DNA of 63,785 bases from a virus (IMGVR_UViG_3300044675_006867), one strand, 5' to 3'. Positions 1-63,785 are shown, numbered from the stretch's first letter. Notes: generated by a model not told the origin, from the sequence alone. Made by a program: numbers and translations.

Positions 1-127
1 TCTTCAAAATTTTTTAGAGGCATATGCTTTGCATTAAGAAATCCAGTTGATAAATTTTTTTGCCAAATCCATCTATACCTAAAAAGACGGGGATTACTTG
101 CCCAAAGCTGAAAAGTGAAAATATTGC
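1..127. repeat. Terminal overlap identical to 63659-63785 (circular closure of the contig)
   Basis: Read directly: the first 127 nt (tcttcaaaatttttt...gaaaatattgc) recur exactly as the last 127 nt. An ORF runs through the junction. Confidence 0.95.
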
Positions 128-38281: not shown

Positions 38282-38352
38282 TACCAGCTACCGCCGAGCG
38301 TGCTTTTATTACACTACTTAAGGAATGCTTAAATGAAGCTGATAGAACCTAA
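37009..38352 (+). CDS. DNA (cytosine-5) methyltransferase, frame A. It carries motifs I, IV, VI, VIII and X, but its middle third looks off-frame.
   Basis: Motifs LCTGYGG, GGFPCQPFS, FLENVRGL, RQRVFILG and RLLGNGVVP. The GTG start is 9 nt after AAGGAG. Confidence 0.75.
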   Translation: MDTTKHITHLSLCTGYGGIDIGLARACPDIRTIAYSEIEVYALENLVNKMEKGILAPAPIWSNLKTFPFKDFYGKVDILSGGFPCQPFSAAGQRNGDTDPRHLFPFIKQGIIDCRPAFVFLENVRGLLSSKLQSDHWADPQGTPVLLHILRDLERIGYEAHWGLFSARETGLPHLRQRVFILGKRKDITNGHIKASAFYGYLQNSGDTILDEGQDCMDKNKANKNPSTSGIDNQGVILQRFAEGARGFEDIKSDRICRPSGRDRRQQFYEPRRTLRRGVNRAQELGNANHNGANHIERSRPLVEYHETIESSLLGSQKYDQGVNRAQGVENPTAKGFLRHIEEQGVYSQGSDEREPSGQYRISSAEFAYRTGERRDEDIRGNEEILESSMGGNADGLANWLDYERLCESYTSLIDEIRLLGNGVVPATAERAFITLLKECLNEADRT

Positions 38353-44608: not shown

Positions 44609-46030
44609 TTACATAGTTTCAATGAGTGTTGAAGATACCTTGGCATTCTTCACAACCCAGCACTTATTTGGAACCTTGACAATTGGAGAACCAAAAAGCA
44701 TAAGTAGGAAGGGCTTAGAGGTTGCAACTTCTGCTAATGGTCTTCTAAAGAAATCAAGGAGTCTTGCAAATTCCATAACACTCTGATCATGCTGTACAAA
44801 CACAAGCTTAGAGCTATTTGGAAGGTTACCATTGAAATCATTATAAACGGTAGCACCACCAGAGGTAGCAGCAATTTCATCAATAAGAACAGCGGTATCA
44901 GCAGAAGCGTCAACCTCGGTTCTATAAATCTTGAAATATACAGCATCGGCTTGTTGTGCAATGGTCAAAACAACCTTATCACCTGCAGCAACAGCGGTAG
45001 AAGCTGAAGTAACAGCTTGTGAGAAGCCATTGTTATTGCAAGCGACGACCTTATAGAAGTAGTTACCAGCATCAGAAGCACCGAATTGACTTGCGGAATC
45101 AGCAGGGGTAGTGATTGAGGAAATCACAGGGGTAGCACTTGCGCCAGTGGTACCAGAACCCGCGGTAGGTGCATTATAGCTATTAAATAGGAATGGTGCA
45201 CTTACAACAGGAACAGGCCCAACAGGCCCCATAATATTGATTTGCTGAGTAGCGCCATAGGTAATTGCGCCGTCATTCTTAGAAATGCTCAATTGATCAT
45301 GTCTACCCCATTGAACAGCAAACTTGATAAGCTCAGCATGAATTCTTGGCTCAACATAAATAGCATCAGGACGACCGAAGCGGGGGGCGCCATATAGCTT
45401 ACCGAGGATTTCTTGAAGGAGTCTTGGGGTTGGACTCTTACCGCGTGCATCAAAAACATTTGAGCCGTTATTGTGGGCTTCAATTTGTTGAATGATACCG
45501 TCAAAGAAAATAGGATTGGTGCTTTCCTTAGCATGGAAAATTGAGCGTTCGAGCTTCTGGAGTAAACGCATTGTACCGCGTTCGGTTTCTAAAGCGATTG
45601 CATTTGAATCAGAGCCGATTAATCCCACTAGTGTACCAACATCGGTTACTTCTCTTCTTTCAGCTAGATACTTAACACGAATTGATTTTCTCTCATATTC
45701 GGATTTGTTAGTAACGCCCGCGGAGCCTTCAGTAATAAATGGGTCTAAATCCATACCGTGATCTTTGATAACAGCATACTCATGAATAGTATTAGTTACA
45801 TTGACCTTGGGGATTTTAGGCCATAAAGCAAGCTCTTTGAGGGTATAGGTAGCACTAGAAAGCATATTCTCAATGCTTTGTGGTACCAAAGGAGATAAGG
45901 AACCAGCATCCGCACCACTTGTAACAGCGGGGGTTTGGTATCCAACGGTAGCACTCTTACGGAGTGCATCATTTAAACCTGCTAATTCGGCTTGTGAAAC
46001 AAAGCTATTGGCTTGTGGTAAATTAAACAT
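44609..46030 (-). CDS. Major capsid protein
   Basis: 473 aa, directly after the scaffold gene and followed by stem-loops. The call rests on position and size. Confidence 0.6.
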   Translation of the reverse strand: MFNLPQANSFVSQAELAGLNDALRKSATVGYQTPAVTSGADAGSLSPLVPQSIENMLSSATYTLKELALWPKIPKVNVTNTIHEYAVIKDHGMDLDPFITEGSAGVTNKSEYERKSIRVKYLAERREVTDVGTLVGLIGSDSNAIALETERGTMRLLQKLERSIFHAKESTNPIFFDGIIQQIEAHNNGSNVFDARGKSPTPRLLQEILGKLYGAPRFGRPDAIYVEPRIHAELIKFAVQWGRHDQLSISKNDGAITYGATQQINIMGPVGPVPVVSAPFLFNSYNAPTAGSGTTGASATPVISSITTPADSASQFGASDAGNYFYKVVACNNNGFSQAVTSASTAVAAGDKVVLTIAQQADAVYFKIYRTEVDASADTAVLIDEIAATSGGATVYNDFNGNLPNSSKLVFVQHDQSVMEFARLLDFFRRPLAEVATSKPFLLMLFGSPIVKVPNKCWVVKNAKVSSTLIETM

Positions 46031-46045
46031 GTATATATGCTCCTA

Positions 46046-46741
46046 TTATTTAATTTCGATTTCGTAATCTTTGGCGACCTGGAGGGCATCAACGCCACTC
46101 TCAAGCTTGGCAATCGCTGTGACTAGCTGACCCTTGCGTACAAAGTCCACCTTGTCATCCTTTAGCATGTTCATTGCCTTGTTGATAACATCCCCTCTTG
46201 TAACGCTTACTTTAGCTTGCTGTTGAGCGTATGGGACATCATTAAATTGAAGAACGGCTTTTGGAGGTACTGGGGATAATAAAGCTTTGTTAATGCTCTT
46301 TTCCATCTCTTGAACCTTGCCGTCAACCTTCTTCATACTTTGCATTTCTTTTAAACAAGCATCTAAGGCCTTCATCATTGCCTTATATTGCTTATCCATA
46401 GTATCAAGAATAGCATCAGTGCCTTTAGCCATAGCTTCCATAGCCTTGTGCATGCTCTTTTCGTCTTCGTCTTCGTCTTCGTACTCAGATTGTTCAAATA
46501 GCATATCCTCAGAGCTGGAGCCGTCTTCTTCATCCTCTTCCTCTTGCTTCATAGCTTTCTTTGAGCCTTTAGCCTTGGATAAGGTTTCGTCTTCATTTAG
46601 CTTCATAGCCTTGGATAGATCATTGATAGCGTCATTCAAGGCGTCTAATTCAACGGAATCAGAGCTAAAGCCATCAGCCAACTTTTGGGCGTCTTCTTGT
46701 GTGAGCCCCTTGTTTAACAAATGCTTGATTAAATCACTCAT
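46046..46741 (-). CDS. Scaffolding protein
   Basis: 231 aa, highly acidic and helical (EEEDEEDGSSSEDMLFEQSEYEDEDEDE), immediately upstream of the capsid gene. Confidence 0.65.
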   Translation of the reverse strand: MSDLIKHLLNKGLTQEDAQKLADGFSSDSVELDALNDAINDLSKAMKLNEDETLSKAKGSKKAMKQEEEDEEDGSSSEDMLFEQSEYEDEDEDEKSMHKAMEAMAKGTDAILDTMDKQYKAMMKALDACLKEMQSMKKVDGKVQEMEKSINKALLSPVPPKAVLQFNDVPYAQQQAKVSVTRGDVINKAMNMLKDDKVDFVRKGQLVTAIAKLESGVDALQVAKDYEIEIK

Positions 46742-46835: not shown

Positions 46836-48194
46836 TTAAATAATGGGCATCTGAGATAGTGGCTTTTCAAAACGATAATACGATATTCCCTTGCCCCCTT
46901 CCTTCTTCTGTGCAAATACAAAGCCCAGGCGTCTTAATCTATCTTTGTCCTCAAATCTACCTTCTACATACAATCTTAGATTATCTGCATCCTTCCCCTC
47001 TATTTCCTCATCAGAAAGCTCTGTGCCTACCTTGTCTTGCTCAAATACATACGAATCATAGCCTAGATATGTACCACCATTAGACTGAGCAACAAGCCTC
47101 TTTTGATCGTCTGTCAATGAAGTAGCTTCTGTCTCTTTAAGCTTGTCATTGCTGAGGTTTTCTTTGATAAAGCTGGTTGCCCCCTGCTTTGTGTTATTCA
47201 ATACATGAATAGGCAAGGAATATGTGACCATTCCCCTATCAAATGTTAAAATGTCAAATCTTTCAAGTCCAGCATCCTTAAGAGCGGGCTTCAAAACATC
47301 ATCCCACCTTGCTTTCTCTCTCTTATCCCATTTCTTATTTACTACCACTGTAAAGCCCTTTGAAGCTTCCTTAGAATCTGCTTCTATTGCATCTAAGAAG
47401 CCTTCTAAGCCACGATATTCTATTGCTCCGCTATCAGATACAAGATTGTCATTGATAAGATCGGTTTTTAGGTCTGTCATTGTTTCTTTAGCATTACTAT
47501 GTGCAAATCTGTTTAAGTCTGTTAAAATATCATAATACTCAAAAGGCACATGTAGCCCTGGTTCCCCTATTGTTTTAAAGTCACTCATATCTGCTGCAGC
47601 CTTATTAAGTTCTTTTAGCTTAGATACACGCGCAACAATTTTATTTAAGGTTTCTTCTTTAGGTGAAGTGGTTTGCTCCTTTGGTTCTTCTTGCTTCTTT
47701 GGTTCTTCTTGCTTCTTTGATTCAGCAAATTTCAGTTTGTCCACCTGTGCTTGTAGTTTATCAAGTGTTTCTTGTTTAACCTTTGCCCCGCGTTCCTTCA
47801 TTTGCTGGAAGTTTGCTAATTGCTTGCTTGCCTTTTGTTTAGCTTGCTTTAGTGCTTCTCTATGCTCATGATGAACTAGCTTTTGAAAGGCTTCCTTAGT
47901 ATAAACATGCTCAGTTCCCTTCTTAGCACCATCATCATGCTTAACGGTAATCATATCCCCATCAACCTTGATAATGTGTGCATGGTACTTGTTTTCACCA
48001 GAACTAAATACAAAGCTTGCACCTTCCACAAGTTCGGATTCATGAGCTAGTCCTTTACCATGTCCTTCTTGTCCTTGATAGAAATATCTGTACTTGGTAC
48101 CCCCTGTATTGGTTGCACCCACTGGGATTCTTCTCACATATTTGTGAGTCCTTGCTTTGATCAGGTCAAGGATTACTGAGTAAAATGAAAACAT
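46836..48194 (-). CDS. Head-module paralog P1: shared N-terminal module plus a unique C-terminus
   Basis: The N-terminus (MFSFYSVILDLIKARTHKYVRRIPVGATNTGGTKYRYFYQGQEGHGKGLAHESELVEGASFVF...) is shared with P2-P4. Confidence 0.8.
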   Translation of the reverse strand: MFSFYSVILDLIKARTHKYVRRIPVGATNTGGTKYRYFYQGQEGHGKGLAHESELVEGASFVFSSGENKYHAHIIKVDGDMITVKHDDGAKKGTEHVYTKEAFQKLVHHEHREALKQAKQKASKQLANFQQMKERGAKVKQETLDKLQAQVDKLKFAESKKQEEPKKQEEPKEQTTSPKEETLNKIVARVSKLKELNKAAADMSDFKTIGEPGLHVPFEYYDILTDLNRFAHSNAKETMTDLKTDLINDNLVSDSGAIEYRGLEGFLDAIEADSKEASKGFTVVVNKKWDKREKARWDDVLKPALKDAGLERFDILTFDRGMVTYSLPIHVLNNTKQGATSFIKENLSNDKLKETEATSLTDDQKRLVAQSNGGTYLGYDSYVFEQDKVGTELSDEEIEGKDADNLRLYVEGRFEDKDRLRRLGFVFAQKKEGGKGISYYRFEKPLSQMPII

Positions 48195-48249
48195 GGTTCT
48201 CCTATTTCTGCTTTCAATATTGTTGTATAGTTGGTTGGGGATATCGTTT

Positions 48250-49518
48250 TTACTCTGTCACATGAAAAATTGTGGTTTTAGCAGAACTGTTTTCTTCCTC
48301 GAATATAAAAAGTCTGCTTGAAAAAGCAGAGTCCATTGACCAAGTGCTTGCGTATGGTAAGAACATTGATAATGCACTAGGAGAAATACTAAGTTTCTGT
48401 TGTTCGGGGTTTTCTGATAACTTTACAGGCTTCCCCCACCTTCCTTTATATGGTACAGTATCAAAAAGTATAGGTTCCTCTTCTTTTTGTGTATTTCTAA
48501 AATAAATGCTTATTTTACCATCTTTGGGATACATAATATCAATTTTTGTATTATCTGCATTATCTCCAAGAGCGTTTATAGACTCCTGCAATTTGTCTTT
48601 TAGAGTACTTGTTAAATCTATTATTATTGAAGAACCAAGCCTGTTGGTTCGTATCTGTTCATAATTCCTAAAAAACTGATCTAATCCATATACATCTCTC
48701 TTCATTGATTCTTCTGTAAATAGTTGTCTAGTAATCTCTATTTTATCACACTTCTTATCCTCTGCAATTTTCTTGGTATACGCATCGGACAAATAGACTG
48801 GTTCATCACGTAGCTCAAATCCTAACGTCATGTTCTCAGGATATGATAAGAGAACGGCTGTTTTCTCTGTTTGCACTAAAAAGGTGCCTGTGCCTTTCAC
48901 GAGGACATGATTAAACTCTTTTCCCGTCTGTGTCCCATTCTTTAATACTTTACGTAAAAAAGACATTATTTTATTTGCAGGTTGCAAAGCAAGGGGGGTG
49001 CTTTTTACATGTACTTTTTTTGTATTAGTTTTTTTGGGGGTTCCTGTTGAAGCATCAAGATTCTTTACTCTTTGTTCTAGCTTATCTAGTGTTTCTTGTT
49101 TAACCTTTGCCCCGAGTTCCTTCATTTGCTGGAAGTCTGCTAATTGCTTGCTTGCCTTTTGTTTAGCTTGTGCTAGTGCTTCTCTATGTTCGTGATGAAC
49201 CAGCTTTTGAAAGGCTTCCTTAGTATAAACATGCTCAGTTCCCTTCTTAGCACCATCATCATGTTTAACGGTGATCGTATTACCGTCAACCTTGGTAATA
49301 TGTGCATGGTACTTGTTTTCACCTTCACCAAAAACAAAACTTGCACCTTCAACAAGTTCGGATTCATGAGCTAGTCCTTTACCATGTCCTTCTTGTCCTT
49401 GATAGAAATATCTGTACTTGGTACCCCCTGTATTGGTTGTACCCACTGGAATTCTTCTCACATATTTGTGAGTCCTTGCTTTGATCAGGTCAAGGATTAC
49501 TGAGTAAAATGAAAACAT
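48250..49518 (-). CDS. Head-module paralog P2: shared N-terminal module plus a unique C-terminus
   Basis: Same first ~140 aa as P1. The MFSFYS ATG at 49518 has the same GAAATAGGAGAACC leader as P1. Confidence 0.8.
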   Translation of the reverse strand: MFSFYSVILDLIKARTHKYVRRIPVGTTNTGGTKYRYFYQGQEGHGKGLAHESELVEGASFVFGEGENKYHAHITKVDGNTITVKHDDGAKKGTEHVYTKEAFQKLVHHEHREALAQAKQKASKQLADFQQMKELGAKVKQETLDKLEQRVKNLDASTGTPKKTNTKKVHVKSTPLALQPANKIMSFLRKVLKNGTQTGKEFNHVLVKGTGTFLVQTEKTAVLLSYPENMTLGFELRDEPVYLSDAYTKKIAEDKKCDKIEITRQLFTEESMKRDVYGLDQFFRNYEQIRTNRLGSSIIIDLTSTLKDKLQESINALGDNADNTKIDIMYPKDGKISIYFRNTQKEEEPILFDTVPYKGRWGKPVKLSENPEQQKLSISPSALSMFLPYASTWSMDSAFSSRLFIFEEENSSAKTTIFHVTE

Positions 49519-49525
49519 GGTTCTC

Positions 49526-50533
49526 CTATTTCTTGCTTTCTTTAGTCTTAGCTGCACGCATTAACAAGGAAACCATTTTATCGAGTTCCTCATTTGAGTA
49601 GCTACTGAATTGCTTTTTAACAAGCTCTTTGATTTGTTGCTTACTAATCATCTTTTTGTCTTTCTTTTGTTGTCCATAGGAAGCATTTGATAGCTTTTGT
49701 TCAAGTGATTGTTCGACTAGTGCACTTTGTGAGGCATCAGCATCAGCAATAGCTGGTTCTTGGTATCCAACATTAGCCCCCATTGATCTTGCAATCACCT
49801 CTAAATTTGTATTTGGGTTTACTGGTGCATTTGTAATTGCCACATGAAGCACCTGCGCCTTTAATACCTTCTTTTTATCCGAAGGATCACGAAGGAGAAC
49901 ACGCCCCTCAATAGAAAAGCCAAGGGAACGATTAGCCCCCGCCTTCTTAATTGCTAAAGCGGTTTCATAGCACTCTCTAGCTAAGGGCTTATCTAGATAC
50001 AAAACGCCCTCTACTCGTGTTCTATTGTCATCTATGCGCTCAATCTTGGTTGGATTCCCTAGCACGGCTTCTGGGCCTGGTCTATGCTCATGATTGAACC
50101 AACCATGCTTTAGAAAATAATCCCAATCTAGCCCGTCTTGGCTGATTCGTTCCCCCTCAAAATCCATGTCATCAGTGGACACGATACCAGCAATTTTACC
50201 CTCACCACCAAGGGAATCATTTCCATTAGGATCATCCCCAGGCACCGCCCCCTTTTCTAGTGTGTCAATAGGAATCCATTTAGCAAAGAAGCCCTTATCA
50301 ATAGCCTCTTCAATGGTTGCTTTGAAATCATGCTCCTTTAACCACTTCTCAAATTCACTAGGGCTAAATTTAGCCTTGTCCGCTCTGATGCTTTGAATCT
50401 CTGATGATCCATCCGCTTTAATCCCTAAAATGGTTGATAAGCCCATTGGGAAGCCCTTTGGCGTATAGCGTCTAAATTCCTTGTATTCGCTAGGTTCTGT
50501 TTGTCTAGCTGCATGTTCATTTTGAAAAGGCAT
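49526..50533 (-). CDS. Prohead protease
   Basis: The NEHAARQ N-terminal motif, then IAGIVSTDDMDFEGERISQDGL...HGWFNHEH, resembling prohead serine protease patterns. Position also supports the call. Confidence 0.6.
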   Translation of the reverse strand: MPFQNEHAARQTEPSEYKEFRRYTPKGFPMGLSTILGIKADGSSEIQSIRADKAKFSPSEFEKWLKEHDFKATIEEAIDKGFFAKWIPIDTLEKGAVPGDDPNGNDSLGGEGKIAGIVSTDDMDFEGERISQDGLDWDYFLKHGWFNHEHRPGPEAVLGNPTKIERIDDNRTRVEGVLYLDKPLARECYETALAIKKAGANRSLGFSIEGRVLLRDPSDKKKVLKAQVLHVAITNAPVNPNTNLEVIARSMGANVGYQEPAIADADASQSALVEQSLEQKLSNASYGQQKKDKKMISKQQIKELVKKQFSSYSNEELDKMVSLLMRAAKTKESKK

Positions 50534-50598
50534 ATTTGTTGCTCCTGTCTTATGTTTATAATTGATTATATGGACTATTTAACATTGTTTCATTTTTT
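50531..50598 (-). promoter_or_regulatory. 68-nt duplicated leader/promoter, copy 1 (upstream of the protease)
   Basis: Identical to 52593-52660 apart from one base. The minus strand reads AAAAAATGAAACAATGTTAAATAGTCCATATAATCAA.TATAAACATAAGACAGGAGCAACAAATATG and contains TATAAT. Confidence 0.6.
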
Positions 50599-50678
50599 GT
50601 GAAAATTATTGTTCTGTCTAAGCTTTGAGCAACCACTTTGTATATGTCATGAATATGACTCAAAGCAATATACATATA

Positions 50679-52595
50679 CTATTTATGTCTTTTTACATGC
50701 TGGATTAGATTATCAAGTGCTTCTTCTAGTGTGTGATCTTTGGCATAGTTAATCTCATGCCCCCAAAAATTATCTATATCTTGATCTATCTGATGAAAAT
50801 CACTCTCATCTGCCCAATCTGTATTATATATGACATTCTTAAAAATTTGAGCGGTTATCAATTCTTTTAATAAAGACTCCTTTGATCTGAGATCATATCG
50901 CCCAGGATATGAAAAAGGTTCTTTTATGTACGCTGATGAAACATCATTTTTGTTGGGATATGCTTGTTTGTAGGATGCCAATAAGCTTTGTGCATTCGTT
51001 TTTATTTGTTGCAATGTCTCCAGAATGTCTTTTTGTGTCTTCATTAGCCCAGTGATATTTGATAATCCATCGTTCAATTTTTCACTTGTCATTTTTTTAT
51101 CGGCACCTGTGATTGCTCCTAGTATTTTTTTAATCTGTTGCTTATTCTGTGTGTTGTTTTGTGCCTGTGTGTTTTGAGGTATCTTATTCGTATTTTCTTG
51201 TTTTACAGAATCTTGCAGGGTGCCGTCTAAGTTATTCCTTAATTTATTTAGTCCATCAGAATCAAATAATTTGTCCAGCGACTCTGTGTCTTGTAAAATA
51301 GGCATATTTTCAAAGGTGATTTCTTTGTCTTCAGGAAACCTTTTTAAATGTTCTCTGACGGCATCAATATTCAGAGGTGTAATAATAGGTTCTTTATCTA
51401 CGCGTCTATTTATTTGATCTTTTAAAATGTCACTAATATTTGGAATATTTGCAAATTTAACGCCGTTGCTTGTTGCTAAATAGAAGGCTATTACTTCATC
51501 TGCATTTTTTCTATAAATAACAGATGGTATTTGCTGAATGAGTTCAGCTGTAGTACTAGTACCTATTCTTATAGAACGAGGATTTTTTATAAATTGTTGC
51601 ATATCCTCTGATATTTTGAAGGGGCTTGCTTGTTCTGTTTGTTCTTGCTTTTTTGTGCGCGTATAGGCACTTTTAGCTTTGTCAATATCCCGCTGTGTTA
51701 TTTCTGTTTGTGTGTCTTTAATTGAAGATATTGTGTGATCAATCCAATCTTTGAACCCTTTTCGTATGCCTGATATTTGTAAGTTATCTTTTTGAATAAG
51801 CGGAATATCGGATCGAATACCTTGAAAGTTACGCTTTGCAAGACTAAGAATTAAATCATTTCTTGAATTAAGTAAAGTAGCAAGCATGCCATATTCTTTA
51901 TATAGGTCTTGATTGGTTACTGATTTATCCAGTGTATCTAAAATATCTTGTGAGTGGTCTTTGTACATCTGAAGAAAAGATAGTGTTTTATCCTTAGTAT
52001 CAAGTGTTGTAGCAAGTTTGCTTAGTGCATCATTGGCGTCTTGCACTTCTGTATATGTTTTAAGCTTTCCCTTTTCAAATGATGAAAATATTTCTTTAGC
52101 ATCGCCTTCTCTTTTTGTTATTGGCGCCTCGAGTGTCTTTACTCTTTGTTCTAGCTTATTAAGTGTTTCTTGCTTAACCTTTGCCCCGCGTTCCTTCATT
52201 TGCTGGAACTCTGATAATTGCTTGCTTGCCTTTTGTCTAGCTTGCTCTAATGCCTTTCTATGTTCAAAATGAACCAGCTTTTGAAAGGCTTCCTTAGTAT
52301 AAACATGCTCAGTTCCCTTCTTAGCACCATCATCATGCTTAACGGTAATCATATCCCCGTCAACCTTGATAATGTGCGCATGGTACTTGTTTTGACCTTC
52401 TGCATTAAATACAAAGCTTGCACCTACCAGAAGTTCGGATTCATGAGCTAGTCCTTTACCATGTCCTTCTTGTCCATGATAGAAATATCTGTACTTGGTT
52501 GCCCCTGTCGTGGTTGCTCCTACTGGAATTCTTCTCACATATTTATGAGTCCTTGCTTTGATCAGGTCAAGGATTACTGAGTAAAATGAAAACAT
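50679..52595 (-). CDS. Head-module paralog P3: shared N-terminal module plus a unique 490-aa C-terminus
   Basis: Same N-terminal module. The C-terminus includes a Q/N-rich tract (NTQAQNNTQNKQQ). Confidence 0.8.
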   Translation of the reverse strand: MFSFYSVILDLIKARTHKYVRRIPVGATTTGATKYRYFYHGQEGHGKGLAHESELLVGASFVFNAEGQNKYHAHIIKVDGDMITVKHDDGAKKGTEHVYTKEAFQKLVHFEHRKALEQARQKASKQLSEFQQMKERGAKVKQETLNKLEQRVKTLEAPITKREGDAKEIFSSFEKGKLKTYTEVQDANDALSKLATTLDTKDKTLSFLQMYKDHSQDILDTLDKSVTNQDLYKEYGMLATLLNSRNDLILSLAKRNFQGIRSDIPLIQKDNLQISGIRKGFKDWIDHTISSIKDTQTEITQRDIDKAKSAYTRTKKQEQTEQASPFKISEDMQQFIKNPRSIRIGTSTTAELIQQIPSVIYRKNADEVIAFYLATSNGVKFANIPNISDILKDQINRRVDKEPIITPLNIDAVREHLKRFPEDKEITFENMPILQDTESLDKLFDSDGLNKLRNNLDGTLQDSVKQENTNKIPQNTQAQNNTQNKQQIKKILGAITGADKKMTSEKLNDGLSNITGLMKTQKDILETLQQIKTNAQSLLASYKQAYPNKNDVSSAYIKEPFSYPGRYDLRSKESLLKELITAQIFKNVIYNTDWADESDFHQIDQDIDNFWGHEINYAKDHTLEEALDNLIQHVKRHK

Positions 52596-52660
52596 ATTTG
52601 TTGCTCCTGTCTTATGTTTATAGTTGATTATATGGACTATTTAACATTGTTTCATTTTTT
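52593..52660 (-). promoter_or_regulatory. 68-nt duplicated leader/promoter, copy 2 (upstream of P3)
   Basis: See 50531-50598. It overlaps the 3' end of the MuF-like gene. Confidence 0.6.
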
Positions 52661-54100
52661 ACTATCTAAATACTCTCGCCAAAGGTCTTTATCGGCTGTG
52701 CTTCTTGTTTTACCCCCAGTTAAAAAGCTATATACCCTTGCTCTAGCCCATGCTACTTGTGTTGCCCCTGGTCTATGTCCCACGCTCCAAGCCTCAGCCC
52801 CTCTTTTGTGAACCTGATTTAAAATGCGCTTTGGTACGCCTGTTAGCTTAGAAGCCACGCTTATAAATTCCTCTGTGCTATTGCCCTTTAGCTCCTCTCG
52901 TACCCTGCTTGCAAGCTGAGTTCTTGTATACTTAGAGGGCTTTGTTTTAGCGTCTTTATCCCCGTGCATGGGCTCATAGCTTCTTTTCTTGTCTGCGCTC
53001 TTTACTCGTTCTTGTATTTCCTTTGCCCTCTTTGCCTTGTCCTCATCAGATAGCCCACTTAGATATTTACGAGGTATCTTGATAGCCTTGGATACCTGAG
53101 CTTCTATACGCTTCATATTGCCCATTCTAGTAACATAAAAGCCCCTTGGTACTGGCAAGGTGTCACATTTACAATTAGGATGAATAGGGAATAATGTAGC
53201 CTTGTATTCTTGCTTTTTCCTTCCTACATTTACCCCATTATCAATTAACTGATTTGGCTCAAATAATACGAGGTTCCCATCAGCACCAACAAACAATGAA
53301 ATACATGATTCACAAGCGTTTGTTTCAGGTACACGAGCAATCAATGAATCAAATTCAATAGCGTTTAATAGTCTTCCCTCATTATGCGCGGCCTGTAGCT
53401 CCGTTTGTGCTATCCTTTGCCAATTCCTTGAATAATCCTTGGTTATATCAGCAAGCCTTCCCGCCAATGTCTTTGTGTCCCTATTCCCCATGATCTCATT
53501 AGCGGTTTCTTGCTTAATCGTATCTAGCATGAATTGCCTTTGTGCCTCATTTACCTCTTGCGTTATCTGTGTTCCCTTCCAGCCCTCCGCGATTGCATCA
53601 TTTATATCCTCTCCTACTTGATTCCCTAGCCCCCTTGCATATATGCCCGCTCTTTCAATTGATGCCTTATATGAAGCCTTTTCACTAGGTGACATCCAAG
53701 CAGGTAAATTTGATGGTGACTCCAGCGGGTCAATTATGCCCGTTGGGCTAGGCTTGCTTACCATGCTAGAAGACACTTGCCCGCCCTGTCCTACAAAGCT
53801 CTTCATCTCCTCTTTTACAGGGGCTAGCCAATCGCTTAAGCTCCAATCTCTCATTTTCATCCGTGTACTATTATCAGCCCTATCCATGATTCGACCAAGC
53901 ACCACTAAGAAGGCATATGGATCAAGTCCAGCCACCTCTAAGCCTGGTTCATCAAGTGTAATCAGCTTCTCATCGTACAATTCCTTGATTCTCTCAGCAC
54001 TTAGCCCACAATTTGAAATACCTAGGAACTGGATTAAAAAGATATCATGCTGATCCTGTACCGTTTTACTTGCTTGCTTTATTAATTCGCTTCTTAGCAT
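52652..54100 (-). CDS. Head morphogenesis protein (Mu F / SPP1 gp7-like)
   Basis: RIAQTELQAAHNEGRL and IHPNCKCD match the MuF-family signatures (rTE...a.n.g; HpnC.C). Confidence 0.75.
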   Translation of the reverse strand: MLRSELIKQASKTVQDQHDIFLIQFLGISNCGLSAERIKELYDEKLITLDEPGLEVAGLDPYAFLVVLGRIMDRADNSTRMKMRDWSLSDWLAPVKEEMKSFVGQGGQVSSSMVSKPSPTGIIDPLESPSNLPAWMSPSEKASYKASIERAGIYARGLGNQVGEDINDAIAEGWKGTQITQEVNEAQRQFMLDTIKQETANEIMGNRDTKTLAGRLADITKDYSRNWQRIAQTELQAAHNEGRLLNAIEFDSLIARVPETNACESCISLFVGADGNLVLFEPNQLIDNGVNVGRKKQEYKATLFPIHPNCKCDTLPVPRGFYVTRMGNMKRIEAQVSKAIKIPRKYLSGLSDEDKAKRAKEIQERVKSADKKRSYEPMHGDKDAKTKPSKYTRTQLASRVREELKGNSTEEFISVASKLTGVPKRILNQVHKRGAEAWSVGHRPGATQVAWARARVYSFLTGGKTRSTADKDLWREYLDSKK

Positions 54101-54156
54101 TTTGTCTACTCCTGTTTTGATAAGAGTAGCATATTTACTTTTATTTTACTTTGTTC

Positions 54157-56043
54157 TTATTTTTTAAAAATCTTAGTGAACATTGTGAAATTAAATCTCA
54201 TACTTTTGCTTATGAATTTCACGGCTTCGCCTGTAGCTTTGTCTTTTGGTCTATACTGGTTATTAATTGCTGTTAATTCTTCTAGCGTTGTTGGTGCTTC
54301 CCCAAACATGTCAGTTTGGTTCTCGGCATCATCACTCAAAACACGCTTTGCAATTCTTGAATACATAGATTTAATCTTTTCCGCACTATTCCCAATTGCT
54401 AAGGATTCTAAATATGCCTTAGCAAGTGGACTTTTTCTCACTGCTGCCTTTAAATTGTTCTCTTCATCCTGTTCTCCCATTGCGATTGATGTTTGCGCAA
54501 ACCAATCATTTAACCCCTTAATATTGCTTTCCGCATCTCCTTTTGTTTTCACAAAGCCTGTTGAATTTGCCAAGGCATACGCATAAATAGCAGATTGCAA
54601 GGCTTTCTTGTTTTCCTCATCTAAACCATGTGTCACCAGTGTAATAATACCAGATGAAAAACGATCATATAAACTAGGCTTAAGCTTTTTAATTACCTTT
54701 CTATCTGTCAAAACTGATCCTGTAATCACATTCTGAAGCATAGAAATAAAGGTATTATTAACTTGTTGTGTATCAATATCAAAGTATTTATTCATATTTT
54801 GATTGCTGAGTACCCCATCTCTCAAAAGGGAATTAATCACATTCGAGGCACCTTTAGAACCACTTTTCAAAAAGTCAGCCAAATTATCATCGCTAGAGGC
54901 CATCATCTCAGCACCTAAAAGTCTTAGTGTGCTATCACTAAGCCTTCTTGCAATTGCGCTTGTTTCTGTCCTCTCATCCATGCTTTGTGTAAAGCCTTCA
55001 TTCATTTGTCTTACAAGAAGTCTTAGATTATTCTTGTCCTGTGATGAAGGCTCATATTCTCTCACCAAAACAGGTTCCTTGAAGCTTGCTACATGGTCAC
55101 TTGAGAATCCAAAAGCATGGGCATTATTTGCTAAATATTCTTTGTATTCTTGGGCCTTTTCTGGATGGTTGCTATAGGCTCTTTGAATTGCCATAGTTCT
55201 TGAATTGCCACCTAATACAATTCGATCAGGCGTCATGATTGGCGCACCGTTAATTGCATCAGGATTCGTATTTACAACAAATGAAGGCTCTAGATTCTGA
55301 GCATTTCTAATAACTTTTAATTGTTCTGCCTTATCCGATTCATAAGCTCTCTCTTGTACTTCTTTAGGATACAAAGGATTTTCGCCAAATGACTCAGCTT
55401 TATGACTAGCTATCAAATCACTGGCTTCTATGATTTTATATTTACACTCATGCCGTACAGGTTTCCCAGCCTCTCCAGTTAAGAGAAGCCTTGCATTTTG
55501 TTTTGATTCATCAACGCTAGGGGTAACAGATACTTTTAATTGGTTCAAAAGCTTATTTAGTGCATCTATGCCACCTTGCTTAACCACGGCTTCTAAAACA
55601 TTTACAAGATTATCCGTGGTCACTTCTCTTTTTTGTGCACGTGTGGACAAAGAATCAATCTTGATTTTTCTTTTAGGTTTTTCAGTATTGCTTGGCGCTT
55701 GGCGTTCTTTTAAAGGATGTTGTTTACTAAACTTTTCTTTGAAAGCATCCTTTGTAAACTCTTCAATTTTCCCCTTGTGTTCCCCATCATCATATTTAAC
55801 CTTAATTTTATCCCCGACCGCTTCGACAATATGCGCATGATGTCTATTTTCTCCGTCACCAAATGCAAAGCTTGCACCTTGTTTTAAATGTTCGTCTTTA
55901 ACTTGAACGGACGCTGTAGCATTTGTGTAGAAATAACGATACTTGGTTTTCCCTGTCTTGGTTGCACCCACTGGGATTCTTCTCACATATTTGTGAGTCC
56001 TTGCTTTGATCAGGTCAAGGATTACTGAGTAAAATGAAAACAT
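54157..56043 (-). CDS. Head-module paralog P4: shared N-terminal module plus a ParB-like (polyvalent-protein type) domain
   Basis: KIIEASDLIASHKAESFGENPLYPKEVQERAY...INGAPIMTPDRIVLGGNSRTMAIQRAY matches the ParB-like pattern seen in DarB-type/polyvalent proteins (dl..SH...np.YP..lQ.R...GaPiv....v.sGN.Rt.a). Confidence 0.7.
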   Translation of the reverse strand: MFSFYSVILDLIKARTHKYVRRIPVGATKTGKTKYRYFYTNATASVQVKDEHLKQGASFAFGDGENRHHAHIVEAVGDKIKVKYDDGEHKGKIEEFTKDAFKEKFSKQHPLKERQAPSNTEKPKRKIKIDSLSTRAQKREVTTDNLVNVLEAVVKQGGIDALNKLLNQLKVSVTPSVDESKQNARLLLTGEAGKPVRHECKYKIIEASDLIASHKAESFGENPLYPKEVQERAYESDKAEQLKVIRNAQNLEPSFVVNTNPDAINGAPIMTPDRIVLGGNSRTMAIQRAYSNHPEKAQEYKEYLANNAHAFGFSSDHVASFKEPVLVREYEPSSQDKNNLRLLVRQMNEGFTQSMDERTETSAIARRLSDSTLRLLGAEMMASSDDNLADFLKSGSKGASNVINSLLRDGVLSNQNMNKYFDIDTQQVNNTFISMLQNVITGSVLTDRKVIKKLKPSLYDRFSSGIITLVTHGLDEENKKALQSAIYAYALANSTGFVKTKGDAESNIKGLNDWFAQTSIAMGEQDEENNLKAAVRKSPLAKAYLESLAIGNSAEKIKSMYSRIAKRVLSDDAENQTDMFGEAPTTLEELTAINNQYRPKDKATGEAVKFISKSMRFNFTMFTKIFKK

Positions 56044-56046
56044 TGG

Positions 56047-56307
56047 TTACTCCTTTTCTGCTTTCATAAGAATATCTTTGCTAATTGCTTTAAGTCTTTG
56101 TTCATACAAGTTAACCATGCTACCAGCAAGCTCAGAAATAGCCTTGATTTCTCCACCTCGTGATTTTTGCGCCTTAAGCATGGTTTCATATTCATCAGGA
56201 TAGATCATGCTTGCAATCGTGCTTGCATTGGCTTGTAGGTGCTTTGTAAGCGTGTCAAGATCATAGCTCTTAAGCTCTTGTTCGCTAAGCTCTAAATTAA
56301 GCTTCAT
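56047..56307 (-). CDS. Hypothetical small protein
   Basis: The ATG at 56307 has AGAGAGG upstream. The track start at 56325 is TTG. Confidence 0.6.
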   Translation of the reverse strand: MKLNLELSEQELKSYDLDTLTKHLQANASTIASMIYPDEYETMLKAQKSRGGEIKAISELAGSMVNLYEQRLKAISKDILMKAEKE

Positions 56308-57106
56308 TTTGTTCCTCTCTTTCAAATTGCTTCATCATTTTCTTAGCCCATGAGAAGCCTGGATTACCACCCCATAGCATCCATGAGATATATGCCTTGC
56401 TCGATTTGTCATCATGGTACTTTTTATAAGCTGAGTGTCTTGAAAAAAAAGAATACATACGCTTAATAGTTTCCTTAGTCACATGTCCTTGAACTAGGTT
56501 GCTTGCTCTTTGTACTCCGCTTCCGATTCCTAGCTTGCCCGCTTGCCTTGAATCTAAGCCACCATGCCCAAACTCTCTTCTAAGCTCTAAGCCCCTTTGT
56601 GCTGCAGCCCTCACGCCCTGGGGTACCTCAAAGCTATTTGCGCCCTTTGTTAGCTTAGTTCTTCTGTAGACTACATCCGTAATCAATGGAACCAAGGCAT
56701 ATTGAATAAAGGCACGAACGGGGCTTGTGATATCAGATAAATCAGCTTCCATAATATCAATGATTCTCTGTTGCATATTTGCATTTCTAATGAAGTCCCT
56801 TGCCACTCGATCAGCAAGCATTTTGATAACCTTGGGCTTAAGAAGCCTAGCACAAAGCTTCTCTCTCTCCTCATCTGGTAATATGCTTATTTGCTCCATG
56901 ATTTGAGTGCTGAGAAAGGCATATTCATTCATGATTGTATCATTGACAATGTCAAAAATAGTACCAGCGGTTATCACCTTAACAGGGGCTTCTATAATAT
57001 CCGTAATCTCATCAAATCTTGGATGAGGGTGCAATTGGCTTTTGAACCAATTTGCGATATTTACATATTTAAACATGTCAAATCCTAGCGTTAAAATACT
57101 AGGCAT
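56297..57106 (-). CDS. Portal-adjacent head protein, function unknown
   Basis: 269 aa, 7 nt after the portal stop. Confidence 0.65.
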   Translation of the reverse strand: MPSILTLGFDMFKYVNIANWFKSQLHPHPRFDEITDIIEAPVKVITAGTIFDIVNDTIMNEYAFLSTQIMEQISILPDEEREKLCARLLKPKVIKMLADRVARDFIRNANMQQRIIDIMEADLSDITSPVRAFIQYALVPLITDVVYRRTKLTKGANSFEVPQGVRAAAQRGLELRREFGHGGLDSRQAGKLGIGSGVQRASNLVQGHVTKETIKRMYSFFSRHSAYKKYHDDKSSKAYISWMLWGGNPGFSWAKKMMKQFEREEQNEA

Positions 57107-57112
57107 ATGTTA

Positions 57113-58711
57113 TCAAATTTCAATTGTGAATTTGTGGTTTTTTATTTGTGCCTTTTGTACCTGCTCTTCTTGCTCTTCTTGGTCTTGGTCTTCTCCTTCA
57201 TCTTCTTGCTCTCCTTCCTGCTCTGATTCATCATAGCCTTGATCTCCTTGGGCTTGTTGCTCTTGGCTTGCTTGTGACATTCCTAGCGACGTAATATAGG
57301 CCTGGTTCAAAATCACATCACCACCTTCAATCTTGGGCAAATTATACTTGGCTCGAATCTCATTCACGGTCAAAAAGTTACTTACTCTTTGTACATCAGC
57401 TGACAACACATCCTTTTCCGTTTCTAAATCCAAGCCAACAAAACGGAGCTCATATTTATCATGTGATACTGGATGGATAATGAACCGATTTAGCCAATTT
57501 TGAACGCTTCTTAAGAGAGGATAAAGCCCTTTGTCCTTTGATGCCTGGATTCTTGCCCCTGGGCCTTGCTGAGTCAATGCCCCTGTTTGTCCCTCGGTAC
57601 CAAATACAAAGCCTAGCTCCGCGGGGTCAATTTGGAATAAGGCACATGATAGCTTGGTTAAATAGCCAATCCATTGAGTGTATCCCATTTCCTCAGCACT
57701 ACCGCCAATTGATACGCTTTGTAAATCCTCTTTTAGATTGGTATCTGGGTCTAATTGAATAATAGGGGTTCTCTTCGCTTGTGCTGCACCACTTAGCATC
57801 GCATACATATCACGCTTAAACGACCTAAATGTATTTGGTGACATTTTACTTTTGAGAACAAGAATACTAGGTGCATGAATACCATTGATGAAATTTGACG
57901 CGTTGTAGGTCTCCGCGTTGACTAAGTGCGTTACTACTCTAATGAGCTCCTCGAGTTCAGGGAATCCATAGCCCCTAGCATGATAAGTAGTTCTTGGTCT
58001 TCTGATACAAAAGGCTAAATTCTCAGCATCGAACTCAGCAACCTTTTTCCCATTGATCACTTGAATAAAGGCGGTATGCTCCCAATCTCTACGCCCTTCC
58101 TCCTTCTCCTTTTCACTGAGTGCACTTCTTCTAATGGTTGAACCATCCACTGGAATGAAGCCCGCTATTTCCCCCTTGCGATTCTTGATAATTTCAAAGG
58201 CCGCCTGATCATAGGTCAAGGAGTCTCTAAGAATCATTTTAACAAAGGCTTCAAAATTGAAGGCACCTCCGAATCGGTAGCCCTCTCCACAGGTTTCTAG
58301 CCACTTTGATAATTCCCTCATTTCCTTGGTTTCCTCGGGCGTGGGCTTCCGTTCTTGGTCTCTAAGTCGGATCACATACCCAGCCTTGTATTGATCCTCT
58401 TGTGGTACGCAAAATTCCGCAATCTGATTTAACCTTGTTTGTATGATCGCACTGATCACAGGCACGCGGGACATAAATTGCAAAATGTCATAATCTACGC
58501 CAAAAGTCCCTTCGTGAGCATTGTCTCTATATGAATCGCTGGTGGCATACATTGAATAATTATATGGATCGACATCATACGCTGAGGGCTCAATTTTACC
58601 CCCTCCCTCTGCTGCCTTAAGTGCCTTTTGAATTAAATCCTCACTGATATCCGATAGCTCTTCTAGCGCTTCCCTGGTATCCGTCTTCTTTTCTCGTCTT
58701 ATTTGATACAT
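57113..58711 (-). CDS. Portal protein
   Basis: ~530 aa, first gene of the late operon upstream of the MuF-like gene, with an acidic C-terminal tail. The ATG at 58711 has AAGGAG 5 nt upstream. Confidence 0.7.
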   Translation of the reverse strand: MYQIRREKKTDTREALEELSDISEDLIQKALKAAEGGGKIEPSAYDVDPYNYSMYATSDSYRDNAHEGTFGVDYDILQFMSRVPVISAIIQTRLNQIAEFCVPQEDQYKAGYVIRLRDQERKPTPEETKEMRELSKWLETCGEGYRFGGAFNFEAFVKMILRDSLTYDQAAFEIIKNRKGEIAGFIPVDGSTIRRSALSEKEKEEGRRDWEHTAFIQVINGKKVAEFDAENLAFCIRRPRTTYHARGYGFPELEELIRVVTHLVNAETYNASNFINGIHAPSILVLKSKMSPNTFRSFKRDMYAMLSGAAQAKRTPIIQLDPDTNLKEDLQSVSIGGSAEEMGYTQWIGYLTKLSCALFQIDPAELGFVFGTEGQTGALTQQGPGARIQASKDKGLYPLLRSVQNWLNRFIIHPVSHDKYELRFVGLDLETEKDVLSADVQRVSNFLTVNEIRAKYNLPKIEGGDVILNQAYITSLGMSQASQEQQAQGDQGYDESEQEGEQEDEGEDQDQEEQEEQVQKAQIKNHKFTIEI

Positions 58712-58811
58712 GGTGCTCCTTTGCATGTGCTCATAGTACTATTTTTCATTGTAATATTTTGACAATATGAAAGCATAGCAAATTTATTTTTATTTATTTT
58801 TGTAAAAAGAT

Positions 58812-58840
58812 TTGACAAAGTGAAAAATATGTATTACCAT
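58812..58840 (+). promoter_or_regulatory. Early promoter, TTGACAAAGTG family (TTGACA-N17-TACCAT)
   Basis: The plus strand reads TTGACAAAGTGAAAAATATGTATTACCAT. It is divergent from the portal operon. Confidence 0.7.
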
Positions 58841-58884
58841 GAACACATCCACCAACCAAAACAATAAAAACAAGGATAAGCAAA

Positions 58885-59461: not shown

Positions 59462-59732
59462 TGGCTATCTCCTTAATAAGCGTGTTTTTGATTGCCTGGA
59501 CTACTTGCACAAAGCCTGCTGCCTTGATACAAATTACCCGTTGTTCATTGAAGATATGTATTGTAGCCCCCATTTTGTCCGAGTGTATTTCTAGCACAAG
59601 CTCGGAACCATCCTCATCTAAGAGGATTCTTGCGCGCCCAGTGTCAAAGACCATTACCGCGTTGTGTTTTTTGCCCGCTAAGGCTTCTTGTATGCCCTCC
59701 GACAAGAAGAGCATTTCATCATCAGTTATCAT
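59454..59732 (-). CDS. Hypothetical protein
   Basis: 92 aa with overlapping start/stop codons on both sides. Confidence 0.65.
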   Translation of the reverse strand: MITDDEMLFLSEGIQEALAGKKHNAVMVFDTGRARILLDEDGSELVLEIHSDKMGATIHIFNEQRVICIKAAGFVQVVQAIKNTLIKEIANE

Positions 59733-60478
59733 TTGTCCCCCAGATGCAATAGTGGTTCATGGTTGGCTATTCTTTCCAGGGACTTATTGTAGTAGGTTTC
59801 ATCCTTTTCTATGCAAATAAAATGCCTATTGCTATTGAGACAAGCAATAGCTGTTGTTCCGCTACCACTACAATTATCTAAGACGACTTCGCCTTCATTT
59901 GTGTAGGTCTTGATTAGATACTCAAAGAGGGCTACGGGCTTTTGCGTTGGGTGCTGTGTGCTTCCTTGGCTAGGAATGCTTATAACATCGCTAGGATAAT
60001 AAAGTCCATTATTGACCGTTGGGATTCGCGCTAGCGCTTCATCACCGTAACCGCTTTTACCGCCAATGGATGATTTAGCATTGGATATAAAATATGGTTT
60101 CCCTGATACTTTTTGAGGATTATATGTGGGCTGGTTTTTATAGAAAAGTAATATGTCTTCATGTTGTGCTAGCGGGCGTCGATTTGCGTTTAAAAATTGT
60201 GTCTTAAGTGATTTATGCCAAACATATTTATACCTAAAAAGACGGGGATTACTTGCCCATAGCTTAAAAGTAAATATGTTATTAGCCGTTAAAACGATAG
60301 CCCCATTGTCCTTGATTACTCTCTCATACTCAGCCCATAACTTGCCCATATCCAGCACGCTATCCCACTCACACGCTGTAGTCCCATAAGGCAAGTCACA
60401 AAGTATCATATCAACGCTTTTACTTGGTATGGAGGGCATCAGCTCCAAGCAATCCCCCAAGTGTACCTTGTCAATCAT
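59729..60478 (-). CDS. DNA methyltransferase paralog A (DPPY-type N6A/N4C family, motif IV before motif I)
   Basis: DLPYG (motif IV), HPTQKP and NCSGSGTT (motif I). Confidence 0.85.
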   Translation of the reverse strand: MIDKVHLGDCLELMPSIPSKSVDMILCDLPYGTTACEWDSVLDMGKLWAEYERVIKDNGAIVLTANNIFTFKLWASNPRLFRYKYVWHKSLKTQFLNANRRPLAQHEDILLFYKNQPTYNPQKVSGKPYFISNAKSSIGGKSGYGDEALARIPTVNNGLYYPSDVISIPSQGSTQHPTQKPVALFEYLIKTYTNEGEVVLDNCSGSGTTAIACLNSNRHFICIEKDETYYNKSLERIANHEPLLHLGDK

Positions 60479-63243: not shown

Positions 63244-63785
63244 CTAGTTTTTTATGTGTAAAAGTGGTTCATGGTTGGCTATTCGTTCCAGGGACTTATT
63301 GTAATAGGTTTCATCCTTCTCTATGCAAATAAAATGCCTGTTGCTATTGAGACAAGCAATCGCTGTCGTGCCTGATCCACTGCAATTATCTAAGACGACT
63401 TCGCCTTCATTTGTGTAGGTCTTGATTAGATACTCAAAGAGGGCTACCGGCTTTTGCGTGGGATGAATTGAATCTATTCGTAGCTCACAATCGAATGACA
63501 AGATACTTGTAGGCAATCTATTTGCATTGACAATGTTATCAGTACGCTTTTCTTTCCATTGTGCATAGTCTTTCCCTTTACTCTTTCTTTTCTCATCTTT
63601 ACCAAATCTAAAACTGATCGGATTATAGGTTGGCTGTTTTTTATAAAAAATCAACACCTCTTCAAAATTTTTTAGAGGCATATGCTTTGCATTAAGAAAT
63701 CCAGTTGATAAATTTTTTTGCCAAATCCATCTATACCTAAAAAGACGGGGATTACTTGCCCAAAGCTGAAAAGTGAAAATATTGC
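63244..63785 (-). CDS. DNA methyltransferase paralog B, C-terminal part (N-terminus at 323..128 across the junction)
   Basis: The frame stays open to the window end. The C-terminus (HPTQKPVALFEYLIKTYTNEGEVVLDNCSGSGTTAIACLNSNRHFICIEKDETYYNKSLERIANHEPLLH) is identical to paralog A. Confidence 0.85.
   Translation of the reverse strand, partial: NIFTFQLWASNPRLFRYRWIWQKNLSTGFLNAKHMPLKNFEEVLIFYKKQPTYNPISFRFGKDEKRKSKGKDYAQWKEKRTDNIVNANRLPTSILSFDCELRIDSIHPTQKPVALFEYLIKTYTNEGEVVLDNCSGSGTTAIACLNSNRHFICIEKDETYYNKSLERIANHEPLLHIKN
63659..63785. repeat. Terminal overlap identical to 1-127
   Basis: Read directly. Confidence 0.95.

Follow-up and report, generated by a model that had tools for sequence, protein, structure and literature searches.

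A conserved N-terminal module on four otherwise unrelated proteins of a phage head-morphogenesis block: a candidate capsid-loading domain of uncultured phages

The viral sequence IMGVR_UViG_3300044675_006867 (63,785 nucleotides, hereafter the window, i.e., the whole stretch of DNA that was analysed) carries on its minus strand a head-morphogenesis block in which four genes, P1 to P4, encode proteins that share a nearly identical N-terminal module and then continue into C-terminal regions (here called cargos) without resemblance to one another. In the direction of the minus strand, the order is portal, orf269, orf92, P4, a MuF-like gene with a DUF5824 domain, P3, protease, P2, P1, scaffold and major capsid protein (Table 1). 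A preliminary description had reported four open reading frames (ORFs) at these places, interleaved with portal-proximal genes, the MuF-like gene, the protease and the scaffold gene, and had read their common N-terminus as a packaging or targeting signal delivering swappable effectors; all four ORFs are indeed present on the minus strand, and the gene order agrees.

At the protein level, residues 1–26 are identical across the four paralogs. The modules of P1, P2 and P3 remain 84–88% identical across about 155 amino acids and then diverge completely, while P4 matches them at 37 of the first 40 positions and follows more loosely thereafter (50% identity across the module), as had been noticed at the outset. 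A profile of the module recovers the four ORFs with E-values from 1e-68 to 5e-89, which is a similarity far beyond chance, while pairwise BLASTP among the four C-termini beyond the module detects no similarity. The near-identity of the gene starts also holds for the DNA, where it had been estimated at about 75 nt and extends in our alignment to the first ~110 nt after the ATG. The leader said to be common to P1 and P2 is shared as well, except that it measures 15 nt rather than 16 (only 14 letters had been printed); its second, identical copy lies before P2, at 49519–49533. For P2 itself, the ATG at 49518, located 7 nt past the stop codon of the protease gene, is preferred as the start, whereas a mechanical ORF list extends the gene to a GTG at 49557 and hence into the protease gene. 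In P1, the KKQEEP-rich linker between module and cargo is encoded by an 18-nt tandem repeat (2.8 copies, 47673–47723), which makes it low-complexity and expandable. Within the module genes, a perfect palindrome, CTCACAAATATGTGAG, is found at 48133–48148, 49457–49472 and 55982–55997, corresponding to codons 16–21 (THKYVR) of P1, P2 and P4, and with one mismatch in P3; because relatives encode HKYIRR at this place and do not conserve the palindrome, it is probably incidental.

Table 1. Features of the head block of the window, from the portal gene to the major capsid protein gene.
Feature	Coordinates	Strand	Evidence
Portal protein, context	57113..58726	-	Pfam Phage_portal, E = 3.9e-11
orf269 (phrog_2859) and orf92, conserved head-block genes, role unassigned	56047..57106	-	ORF calls, PHROGs, relatives
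P4, 628 aa: diverged module aa 1–~176 (55516–56043), DdrB-like cargo	54157..56043	-	
ddrB-type ParB/Srx domain of P4, aa 197–330, GGNSRTM arginine motif	55054..55455	-	Pfam
MuF-like minor head protein, C-terminal DUF5824	52652..54100	-	phrog_115, E = 5.6e-9; DUF5824, E = 5.7e-22
First copy of a 68-nt repeat, comprising leader and ATG of P3: promoter-like ATGAAA-17-TATAAT (10/12 matches), AGGAG ribosome-binding site	52593..52660	-	
P3, 638 aa: module aa 1–161 (52113–52595), 477-aa cargo without assigned function	50679..52595	-	
Second copy of the 68-nt repeat, comprising leader and ATG of the protease gene, 99% identical to the first	50531..50598	-	
Prohead maturation protease	49526..50533	-	phrog_1028, E = 4e-48; weak Peptidase_S78 match
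P2, 422 aa from the ATG: module aa 1–160 (49039–49518), 262-aa cargo without assigned function	48250..49518	-	
15-nt leader AGAAATAGGAGAACC, directly 5' of the P1 ATG, strong ribosome-binding site	48195..48209	-	
P1, 452 aa: module aa 1–160 (47715–48194), KKQEEP-repeat linker, 292-aa acidic cargo without assigned function	46836..48194	-	
Acidic scaffold-like protein, pI 4.7, net charge -16	46046..46741	-	Position and composition
Major capsid protein	44609..46030	-	phrog_752, E = 5e-61

The divergence of P4 from its three paralogs is unevenly distributed along the module. When only codons with a conserved amino acid are counted, the synonymous differences that separate P4 from P1–P3 amount to 8–19% in codons 1–40, 35–40% in codons 41–100 and 64–90% in codons 101–160, a mosaic that uniform divergence after duplication cannot yield, so that the 5' end has been homogenised between paralogs by gene conversion or recombination. 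Moreover, the modules of P1–P3, despite their unrelated cargos, are far closer to each other than to the module borne by an orthologous cargo in the related contig L001 (~61% identity), and the window modules carry common derived residues that are missing from the latter. The modules of a genome thus show concerted evolution, which, together with the homogenised 5' end of P4, fits a situation in which all paralogs match one genome-specific partner. A further repeat, the 68-nt leader found before both P3 and the protease gene, leaves the P3 gene bracketed by direct repeats; apart from this duplicated leader, promoter and terminator scans of the region remained at background level, and an Rfam scan of the head region returned no match. 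In L001, the scaffold-adjacent module gene (8584–9953) is split into ORFs of 143 and 313 aa, be it through a frameshift, pseudogenisation or an assembly error.

A word-indexed homolog search with the module retrieved only 6 relatives, whereas an exhaustive profile search returned 505 clusters (at 50% identity) at E ≤ 1e-3, 322 of them at E ≤ 1e-10. Architectures were counted on 153 proteins, i.e., the 150 best-scoring ones and three earlier matches: 125 have one N-terminal module (median length 508 aa), nine have one internal copy, and the remaining 19 are giants of 1251–3608 aa with two to four complete copies, including the preceding helix. This breadth bears directly on the possibility that the shared N-terminus is a mere by-product of recent duplication and exon-like shuffling, devoid of any common function, as the high nucleotide identity and the repeated leaders might suggest. 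Conservation over 505 clusters, with invariant residues and in lineages whose portals are only distantly related, already contradicts this explanation on sequence grounds, as does the confident fold that AlphaFold predicts from the family alignment (see below), and we regard it as the least probable of those considered here.

In the window, in 25 close relatives and in seven distant loci, every module gene is located in the head block, between the terminase or portal gene and the capsid gene. The tie to head morphogenesis, first suspected from a single genome, therefore holds at every locus examined, including distant lineages and a prophage. Portal and scaffold delimit the stretch in which all module genes of the 25 close relatives are found, with three to five copies per genome occupying four variable slots: portal|orf269, orf92|MuF, MuF|protease (one to three genes) and protease|scaffold (zero to two genes); both copy number and slots differ between close relatives. 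Farther away, giants are encoded between terminase and portal in L027 and L028, a 716-aa member stands between MuF+DUF5824 and an S78 protease in L029, and L030, L031, L025 and L032 likewise have their module genes in the head block. Three species-representative genomes, all of them metagenome-assembled genomes (MAGs), carry the module, L032 being a prophage in a Myxococcales chromosome. Across these lineages, portal, protease and capsid proteins are homologous, even though the portals are only distant relatives.

Some peculiarities of these loci deserve mention in their own right. The large terminase of L027 (6742–9354) contains an intein (Intein_splicing and LAGLIDADG_3 matches), and a protein with an InPase domain is encoded just downstream of the portal in both L027 (18391–20226) and L028 (19391–20977), where it weakly resembles MuF-like genes from other lineages; InPase is a domain of polyvalent proteins (Iyer 2017, PMC5512222). 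Two metagenomic proteins, P0060 (656 aa) and P0061 (548 aa), have their module only from residue ~115 onwards, in frame behind an orf269-like C-terminus (…WLLWGGDSGFAWAKR…); whether gene fusion or mis-called start, this arrangement links orf269 physically to the module genes.

Two AlphaFold models of the module were computed, the first from 9 sequences (predicted local distance difference test, pLDDT, of 76) and the second from a 61-sequence family alignment (pLDDT 92.3; predicted template modelling score, pTM, 0.81). The second model predicts a helix described as amphipathic (residues 4–15), a beta-hairpin (19–39, HKYVRRIPVG...TKYRYFY) with the basic consensus HKYxRRxP...YRYFY, four further strands within residues 60–99 (60–63, 70–78, 81–86 and 95–99) and a long helical hairpin (helices 100–134 and 141–159). 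Six genes in relatives retain only the first ~45–78 residues of the module, joined directly to a cargo, so that the helix-plus-hairpin unit can stand alone; this ~45-residue stretch is the one that is nearly identical in the four window paralogs. Additional landmarks are a conserved V-x-x-L-[DE] at the end of the module and an [IV]EKA[LM] motif upstream of the internal modules.

The preliminary description could not place the module in a named family, and neither could our searches. With the pLDDT-92 model, Foldseek matches in the PDB stayed short of significance (best E = 0.27, over the ~45-residue barrel only), while the earlier pLDDT-76 model, the only one compared to BFVD, gave nothing significant there (best E = 0.016 across 42 columns). 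Sequence profile searches of the PDB peaked at E = 0.09–0.35, Pfam and PHROGs had no module match at E ≤ 0.01, and NCBIfam and PADLOC offered nothing meaningful; in the giant proteins, Pfam domains leave the module stretches uncovered. At E ≤ 5, Pfam yields faint SH3-like matches only (RimP_C, 0.034; Myosin_N, 0.085). These faint Pfam matches and those of the PDB sequence searches point to the same kind of SH3/Tudor-like domain, and weak matches to Tudor, Agenet, KOW, Sso7d and myosin-SH3, none of which is significant, recur over the barrel (residues ~60–99). We would thus describe the module as a new domain built round a predicted SH3/Tudor-like barrel and belonging to no named family. Readings of its HxH and DDG motifs as cupin, M23 peptidase or retropepsin were considered and rejected, as the motif spacing does not fit and profiles give no support.

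Among divergent members, Y19, Y37 and Y39 are invariant, while K13, H17, K18, R22, G46, G58, H71, H73, D87 and H111 are nearly so. The modules are uniformly basic (median pI 9.7 and net charge +8 over 61 sequences), in contrast to the scaffold, whose strong negative charge is given in Table 1. The near-invariant histidine, tyrosine, arginine and aspartate set, combined with this uniform basic charge, would be compatible with DNA binding or some other biochemical function. In such a case, the module could work in the host, binding the incoming DNA or a metal or phosphate and holding the cargo on the phage genome, with packaging, if any, depending on other features; a basic hairpin next to a small barrel of the SH3/Tudor/KOW/Sso7d type, as predicted here, and the repetition of the module inside giant proteins acting on DNA would suit such a function. 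However, the fold matches are generic and non-significant, and three observations would be left unexplained, namely the constant position in the head block, the barrel-less ~45-residue fragment kept on some cargos and the homogenisation of modules within a genome. We consider this explanation unlikely; it overlaps in part with a loading role, as one and the same module might fulfil both functions.

By BLASTP, the C-termini of 111 representatives group into 56 clusters, of which 34 are singletons, and related phages do carry the same module with differing C-termini, just as would be anticipated from the idea of a common N-module with swappable effectors. In addition, the same cargo can be met in different slots of relatives. 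Homologs of the P1 cargo are found in L001, L005, L004, L022 and in the proteins P0015, P0018, P0020 and P0025, in a different slot and with ~32% identity where aligned (a level of similarity at which the word-indexed search had returned no match): this cargo adjoins the scaffold gene in the window but orf92 in L001 and L005. The P2 cargo has homologs only in P0007 and P0024, whereas the P3 cargo recurs in L009, L010, L013, L015 and L019, in four of the five joined to just the first ~45 residues of the module. A Pfam scan of 95 members identified three ddrB-ParB domains, one LPD1 and one weak UvrA, the remainder being without domain.

The P4 cargo is the only one of the four for which the Pfam, PHROGs, NCBIfam, PADLOC and PDB searches gave a match, to ddrB-ParB (PF18763, E = 1.2e-23). 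Residues 202–590 of P4 align by BLASTP with residues 44–419 of the DdrB protein of phage P1 (23% identity, E = 2e-13), the GGNSRTM of the former facing the SGNGRTM of the latter (GN(S/G)RTM arginine motif). DdrB-type cargos are also the most widespread, extending from the window to giants and to a Sedimentisphaerales MAG, and they lie upstream of MuF in the window and downstream in L011, L012, L016, L022 and L023. Regarding the giants, P0017 combines a methyltransferase with an SNF2 helicase, and P0039 an LPD1 domain with a Sno-type helicase. Giants are encoded next to the portal, and two to four internal modules are intercalated between their methylase and SNF2-helicase domains. As each module of P0017 precedes a block of other domains, the giants look like strings of module-cargo units.

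These cargos speak to another explanation, according to which the module would anchor variable domains on the exterior of the capsid, as decoration or head-fibre proteins mediating adhesion. The location in the head block is in line with it, as is the combination of an N-terminal anchor and a variable C-terminus, which some decoration proteins also have. Nonetheless, no Ig-like, lectin or carbohydrate-binding domain occurs in the 95 scanned members, the recognised cargos are intracellular DNA enzymes, and giants of 2000–3600 aa make implausible decorations, all of which renders an external role very improbable.

The gene that immediately follows P1 offers a weak lead. At its N-terminus, the scaffold has a sequence, MSDLIKHLLNKG, similar to that of the module helix, ILDLIKARTHKY (module residues 8–19), and, of all six-frame ORFs of the window, just the four module ORFs (at position 10) and the scaffold (at its start, MSDLIKHL) contain DLIK. 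In three lineages, D-L-x-K-[AG] is the only invariant feature of the N-terminal half of the scaffolds, and in the L027/L028 lineage the variable position of D-L-x-K is a glutamate in both scaffold and modules. This may be a shared docking or cleavage motif, or a coincidence. The same resemblance, along with the location of the genes among those for scaffold, protease and portal and the predicted helical hairpin, could alternatively indicate morphogenetic helpers, that is, scaffold-like or chaperone-like paralogs absent from mature virions and never ejected. Assembly factors are normally conserved, whereas the C-termini considered here are hypervariable; the DdrB-type ParB domain and the methylase and SNF2-helicase cargos of relatives act on DNA rather than on capsids; and copy number and slots vary among close relatives. 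We thus find such a helper role rather improbable.

From a comparative perspective, the closest parallel is the Dar system of phage P1. Its head-internal proteins are encoded beside portal and protease genes, with darB adjoining prt as the giants adjoin the portal gene. DarB is loaded into phage P1 heads via its N-terminus, of which the first 30 residues suffice for loading a reporter, and DdrB is a head protein detected in virions at 59.5% coverage (PMC9024508), while DarA-Hdf line the inner capsid surface and exit with the DNA (PMC12810830). The analogy with Dar proteins drawn in the preliminary description is strengthened by the homology of the P4 cargo to DdrB and by the DarB-like make-up of the giants (methylase and helicase) next to the portal. 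On the other hand, one domain is common to every cargo in our case, whereas the Dar proteins have no common N-terminal sequence (PMC9024508), P4 lacks the C-terminal metallopeptidase of DdrB, and no homologs of DarA or Hdf were found in the head block of the window. Since none of the six Dar proteins searched contains the module, the tie to this system passes through one cargo only.

The leader of T4 internal proteins is a short peptide of about 10 residues that is removed by the prohead protease. Like the module proteins, IpI-III and their relatives are unrelated polypeptides united by their N-terminus only, in their case a leader that serves for packaging; they are injected, several per genome, they inhibit distinct restriction enzymes, and their set is hypervariable between related phages (PMC12373910). 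The differences are that the shared element is here a predicted folded domain of 155 aa instead of a short leader and that the T4 ip genes are not interleaved with head-assembly genes; tblastn of the module against all GenBank phages, T4-like ones included, revealed no similarity. MuF-fused polymorphic toxins of temperate phages, reportedly described by Jamet et al. in 2017, also combine a head-associated N-terminal domain with polymorphic C-terminal effectors. In contrast, the carrier is not MuF in the window, where P1–P4 bear no MuF signature and MuF-like features are confined to the separate, neighbouring gene with DUF5824. The defining features of the T4 capsid-targeting sequence (CTS) proteins and of the MuF toxins were both looked for, and membership in either family was rejected.

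Polyvalent proteins are multi-domain proteins delivered with the DNA and subject to extreme domain shuffling (Iyer et al. 2017, PMC5512222), and ddrB-ParB domains belong to phage-type polyvalent proteins adjoining virion genes (PMC5512222). The giants resemble them in joining the module with ddrB-ParB, LPD1, N6-methylase and SNF2 domains, and all module genes do so by lying among late or virion structural genes. At least two conflict-related effector domains on one polypeptide, which is the hallmark of the class, are present in P0017 and P0039, compared to a single one in P4 of the window and none in P1–P3. Unlike in polyvalent proteins, the units of the window are separate genes; the module is not among the polyvalent domains deposited in Pfam, and tblastn with 13 divergent modules found no match in 72,556 PLSDB plasmids. 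Two looser parallels can be drawn. The RIX, MIX and FIX effectors of type VI secretion systems (PMC10435454) similarly associate a conserved N-terminal delivery domain with unrelated C-terminal effectors, but through a secretion apparatus rather than a capsid and without sequence relationship, so that this is an analogy only. The inner-body or ejection proteins of phiKZ and SPN3US (PMC5694885) form paralogous families, too, in their case packaged in the head and ejected, except that they are related over their full length and come from jumbo phages, whereas only the N-module is common here, in a genome of 63.7 kb. By analogy, the module-cargo set would work like the CTS-tagged internal proteins of T4 and the Dar proteins of phage P1, while being connected to the polyvalent world through its cargos. 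What is new is the carrier domain; the strategy that it most likely serves, the packaging of proteins in the head so that they enter the host together with the genome, is already known.

In our interpretation, P1–P4 are module-linker-cargo proteins that would be loaded into the prohead, ejected with the DNA and have their cargos swapped by recombination, to which we assign a probability of roughly 0.6. The module would serve as a common adaptor recruiting each protein into the assembling prohead, possibly by docking on the scaffold core, which is very acidic, or else on the portal or MuF. The variable cargos would thereby enter the capsid along with the DNA and leave it again on ejection, so as to act in the host at the very start of infection, ahead of phage gene expression, one of them being the DdrB-type ParB domain. 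Recombination would find the homology it needs in the repeated leaders and in the homogenised ~120 nt at the 5' end of the module genes, allowing cargo cassettes to move among the four slots of the head block and the repertoire to turn over; in other lineages, such units would have been joined into giant polyproteins of the DarB kind, each unit with its own module. This interpretation is favoured because of the strict linkage to the head block, the portability and polymorphism of the cargos, the homology of one cargo to a virion protein (DdrB) and the DarB-like giants beside the portal, as well as the within-genome concerted evolution of the modules and their charge complementarity with the scaffold. 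More tentatively, the module may be a portable domain for capsid loading and, as such, the mark of an extensive system of polymorphic cargos that has escaped recognition until now; its bearers would be a widespread lineage of uncultured phages with portal, MuF, S78-type protease and SU10-like capsid proteins in common.

Several points weigh against a loading role. First, the predicted folded domain of 155 aa, which recurs inside giant proteins, differs from short cleavable N-terminal signals; hence, the module is not simply a signal of the T4 or DarB type, and what the data support of the reading initially put forward is the discrete, portable and head-block-linked nature of the element, besides the analogy with Dar proteins. 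It resembles no known capsid-targeting sequence, no protease cleavage motif is definable in the module proteins, and hmmsearch --max with two module profiles attributed negative bit scores to DarB, DdrB, DarA, Hdf, Ulx and DdrA. Second, the near-invariant H17, H71, H73, H111, D87, Y19, Y37, Y39 and R22 and the basic charge would also be compatible with the binding of metal, DNA or phosphate. Third, regarding the scaffold, hhalign does not support a relationship with the module (probability 0.07), and the N-terminal DLIK match is missing from the scaffold of L029. Fourth, the cargos of P1–P3 have no match in Pfam, PHROGs, NCBIfam, PADLOC or the PDB, which leaves three of the four cargos without inferable function. 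Finally, all ten relatives for which the source was looked up are metagenomic, and neither the 13 divergent modules, joined in a single tblastn query against 50,697 GenBank phage records, nor the module of the window, compared to GenBank phages in the same way, gave any match; as far as the searches reach, the module thus appears confined to uncultured phages.

The remainder of the genome provides the context. The first 127 nt of the window recur unchanged at its other end (1–127 and 63659–63785), which marks it as a complete genome of ~63,658 bp, circular or terminally redundant, that was opened within a DNA methyltransferase gene. Tail sheath and baseplate genes identify a myovirus, which encodes its own DNA polymerase, ribonucleotide reductase and thymidylate synthase. 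Its major capsid protein is at most 28% identical to the capsid protein of any cultured phage, and the head block has no megablast match among GenBank phages. Within that block, the idea of a domain common to orf269 and the C-terminus of MuF was examined and rejected. Three DNA methyltransferase genes are present, at 37009–38352 (plus strand), 59729–60478 (minus strand) and 63244–63785 continued by 1–323 (minus strand), the last two being paralogs with DNA segments 85–92% identical (repeat families D4 and D6); the phage invests heavily in DNA modification, in addition to its putative injected proteins. Two dispersed repeats, one of 51 nt (1692–1742 and 58801–58851), which holds a TTGACA and sits in the divergent region upstream of the portal gene, and one of 58 nt (1097–1154 and 26309–26366), may be repeated promoters or regulatory sites. 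On the plus strand, a tail-fibre-like ORF of 1022 aa (10556–13624; phrog_697, minor tail matches) contains internal direct repeats of 47 and 133 nt (D7 and D8).

Proteins injected with the phage DNA act before any phage gene is expressed, and they are thus the first counter-measure against host immunity. To our knowledge, few examples have been recognised (the Ip proteins of T4, the Dar proteins of phage P1 and the virion RNA polymerase, vRNAP, of N4), such proteins being difficult to spot because their loading signals are short or idiosyncratic. If loading by the module were confirmed, a conserved marker amenable to profile searches would predict injected proteins directly from metagenomes, across 505 clusters whose C-termini are almost all without assigned function. 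Any protein fused to the module, perhaps to only its first ~45 residues, would then be packaged and injected, and the module might serve as a tag for loading foreign proteins into capsids. The more than 50 C-terminal families would amount to a catalogue of first-strike effectors for anti-defence or host takeover, their cassettes being shuffled inside an otherwise conserved head-assembly operon. Lastly, the finding suggests how giant DarB-like polyvalent proteins are built, since these would be polyproteins made of strings of module-cargo units.

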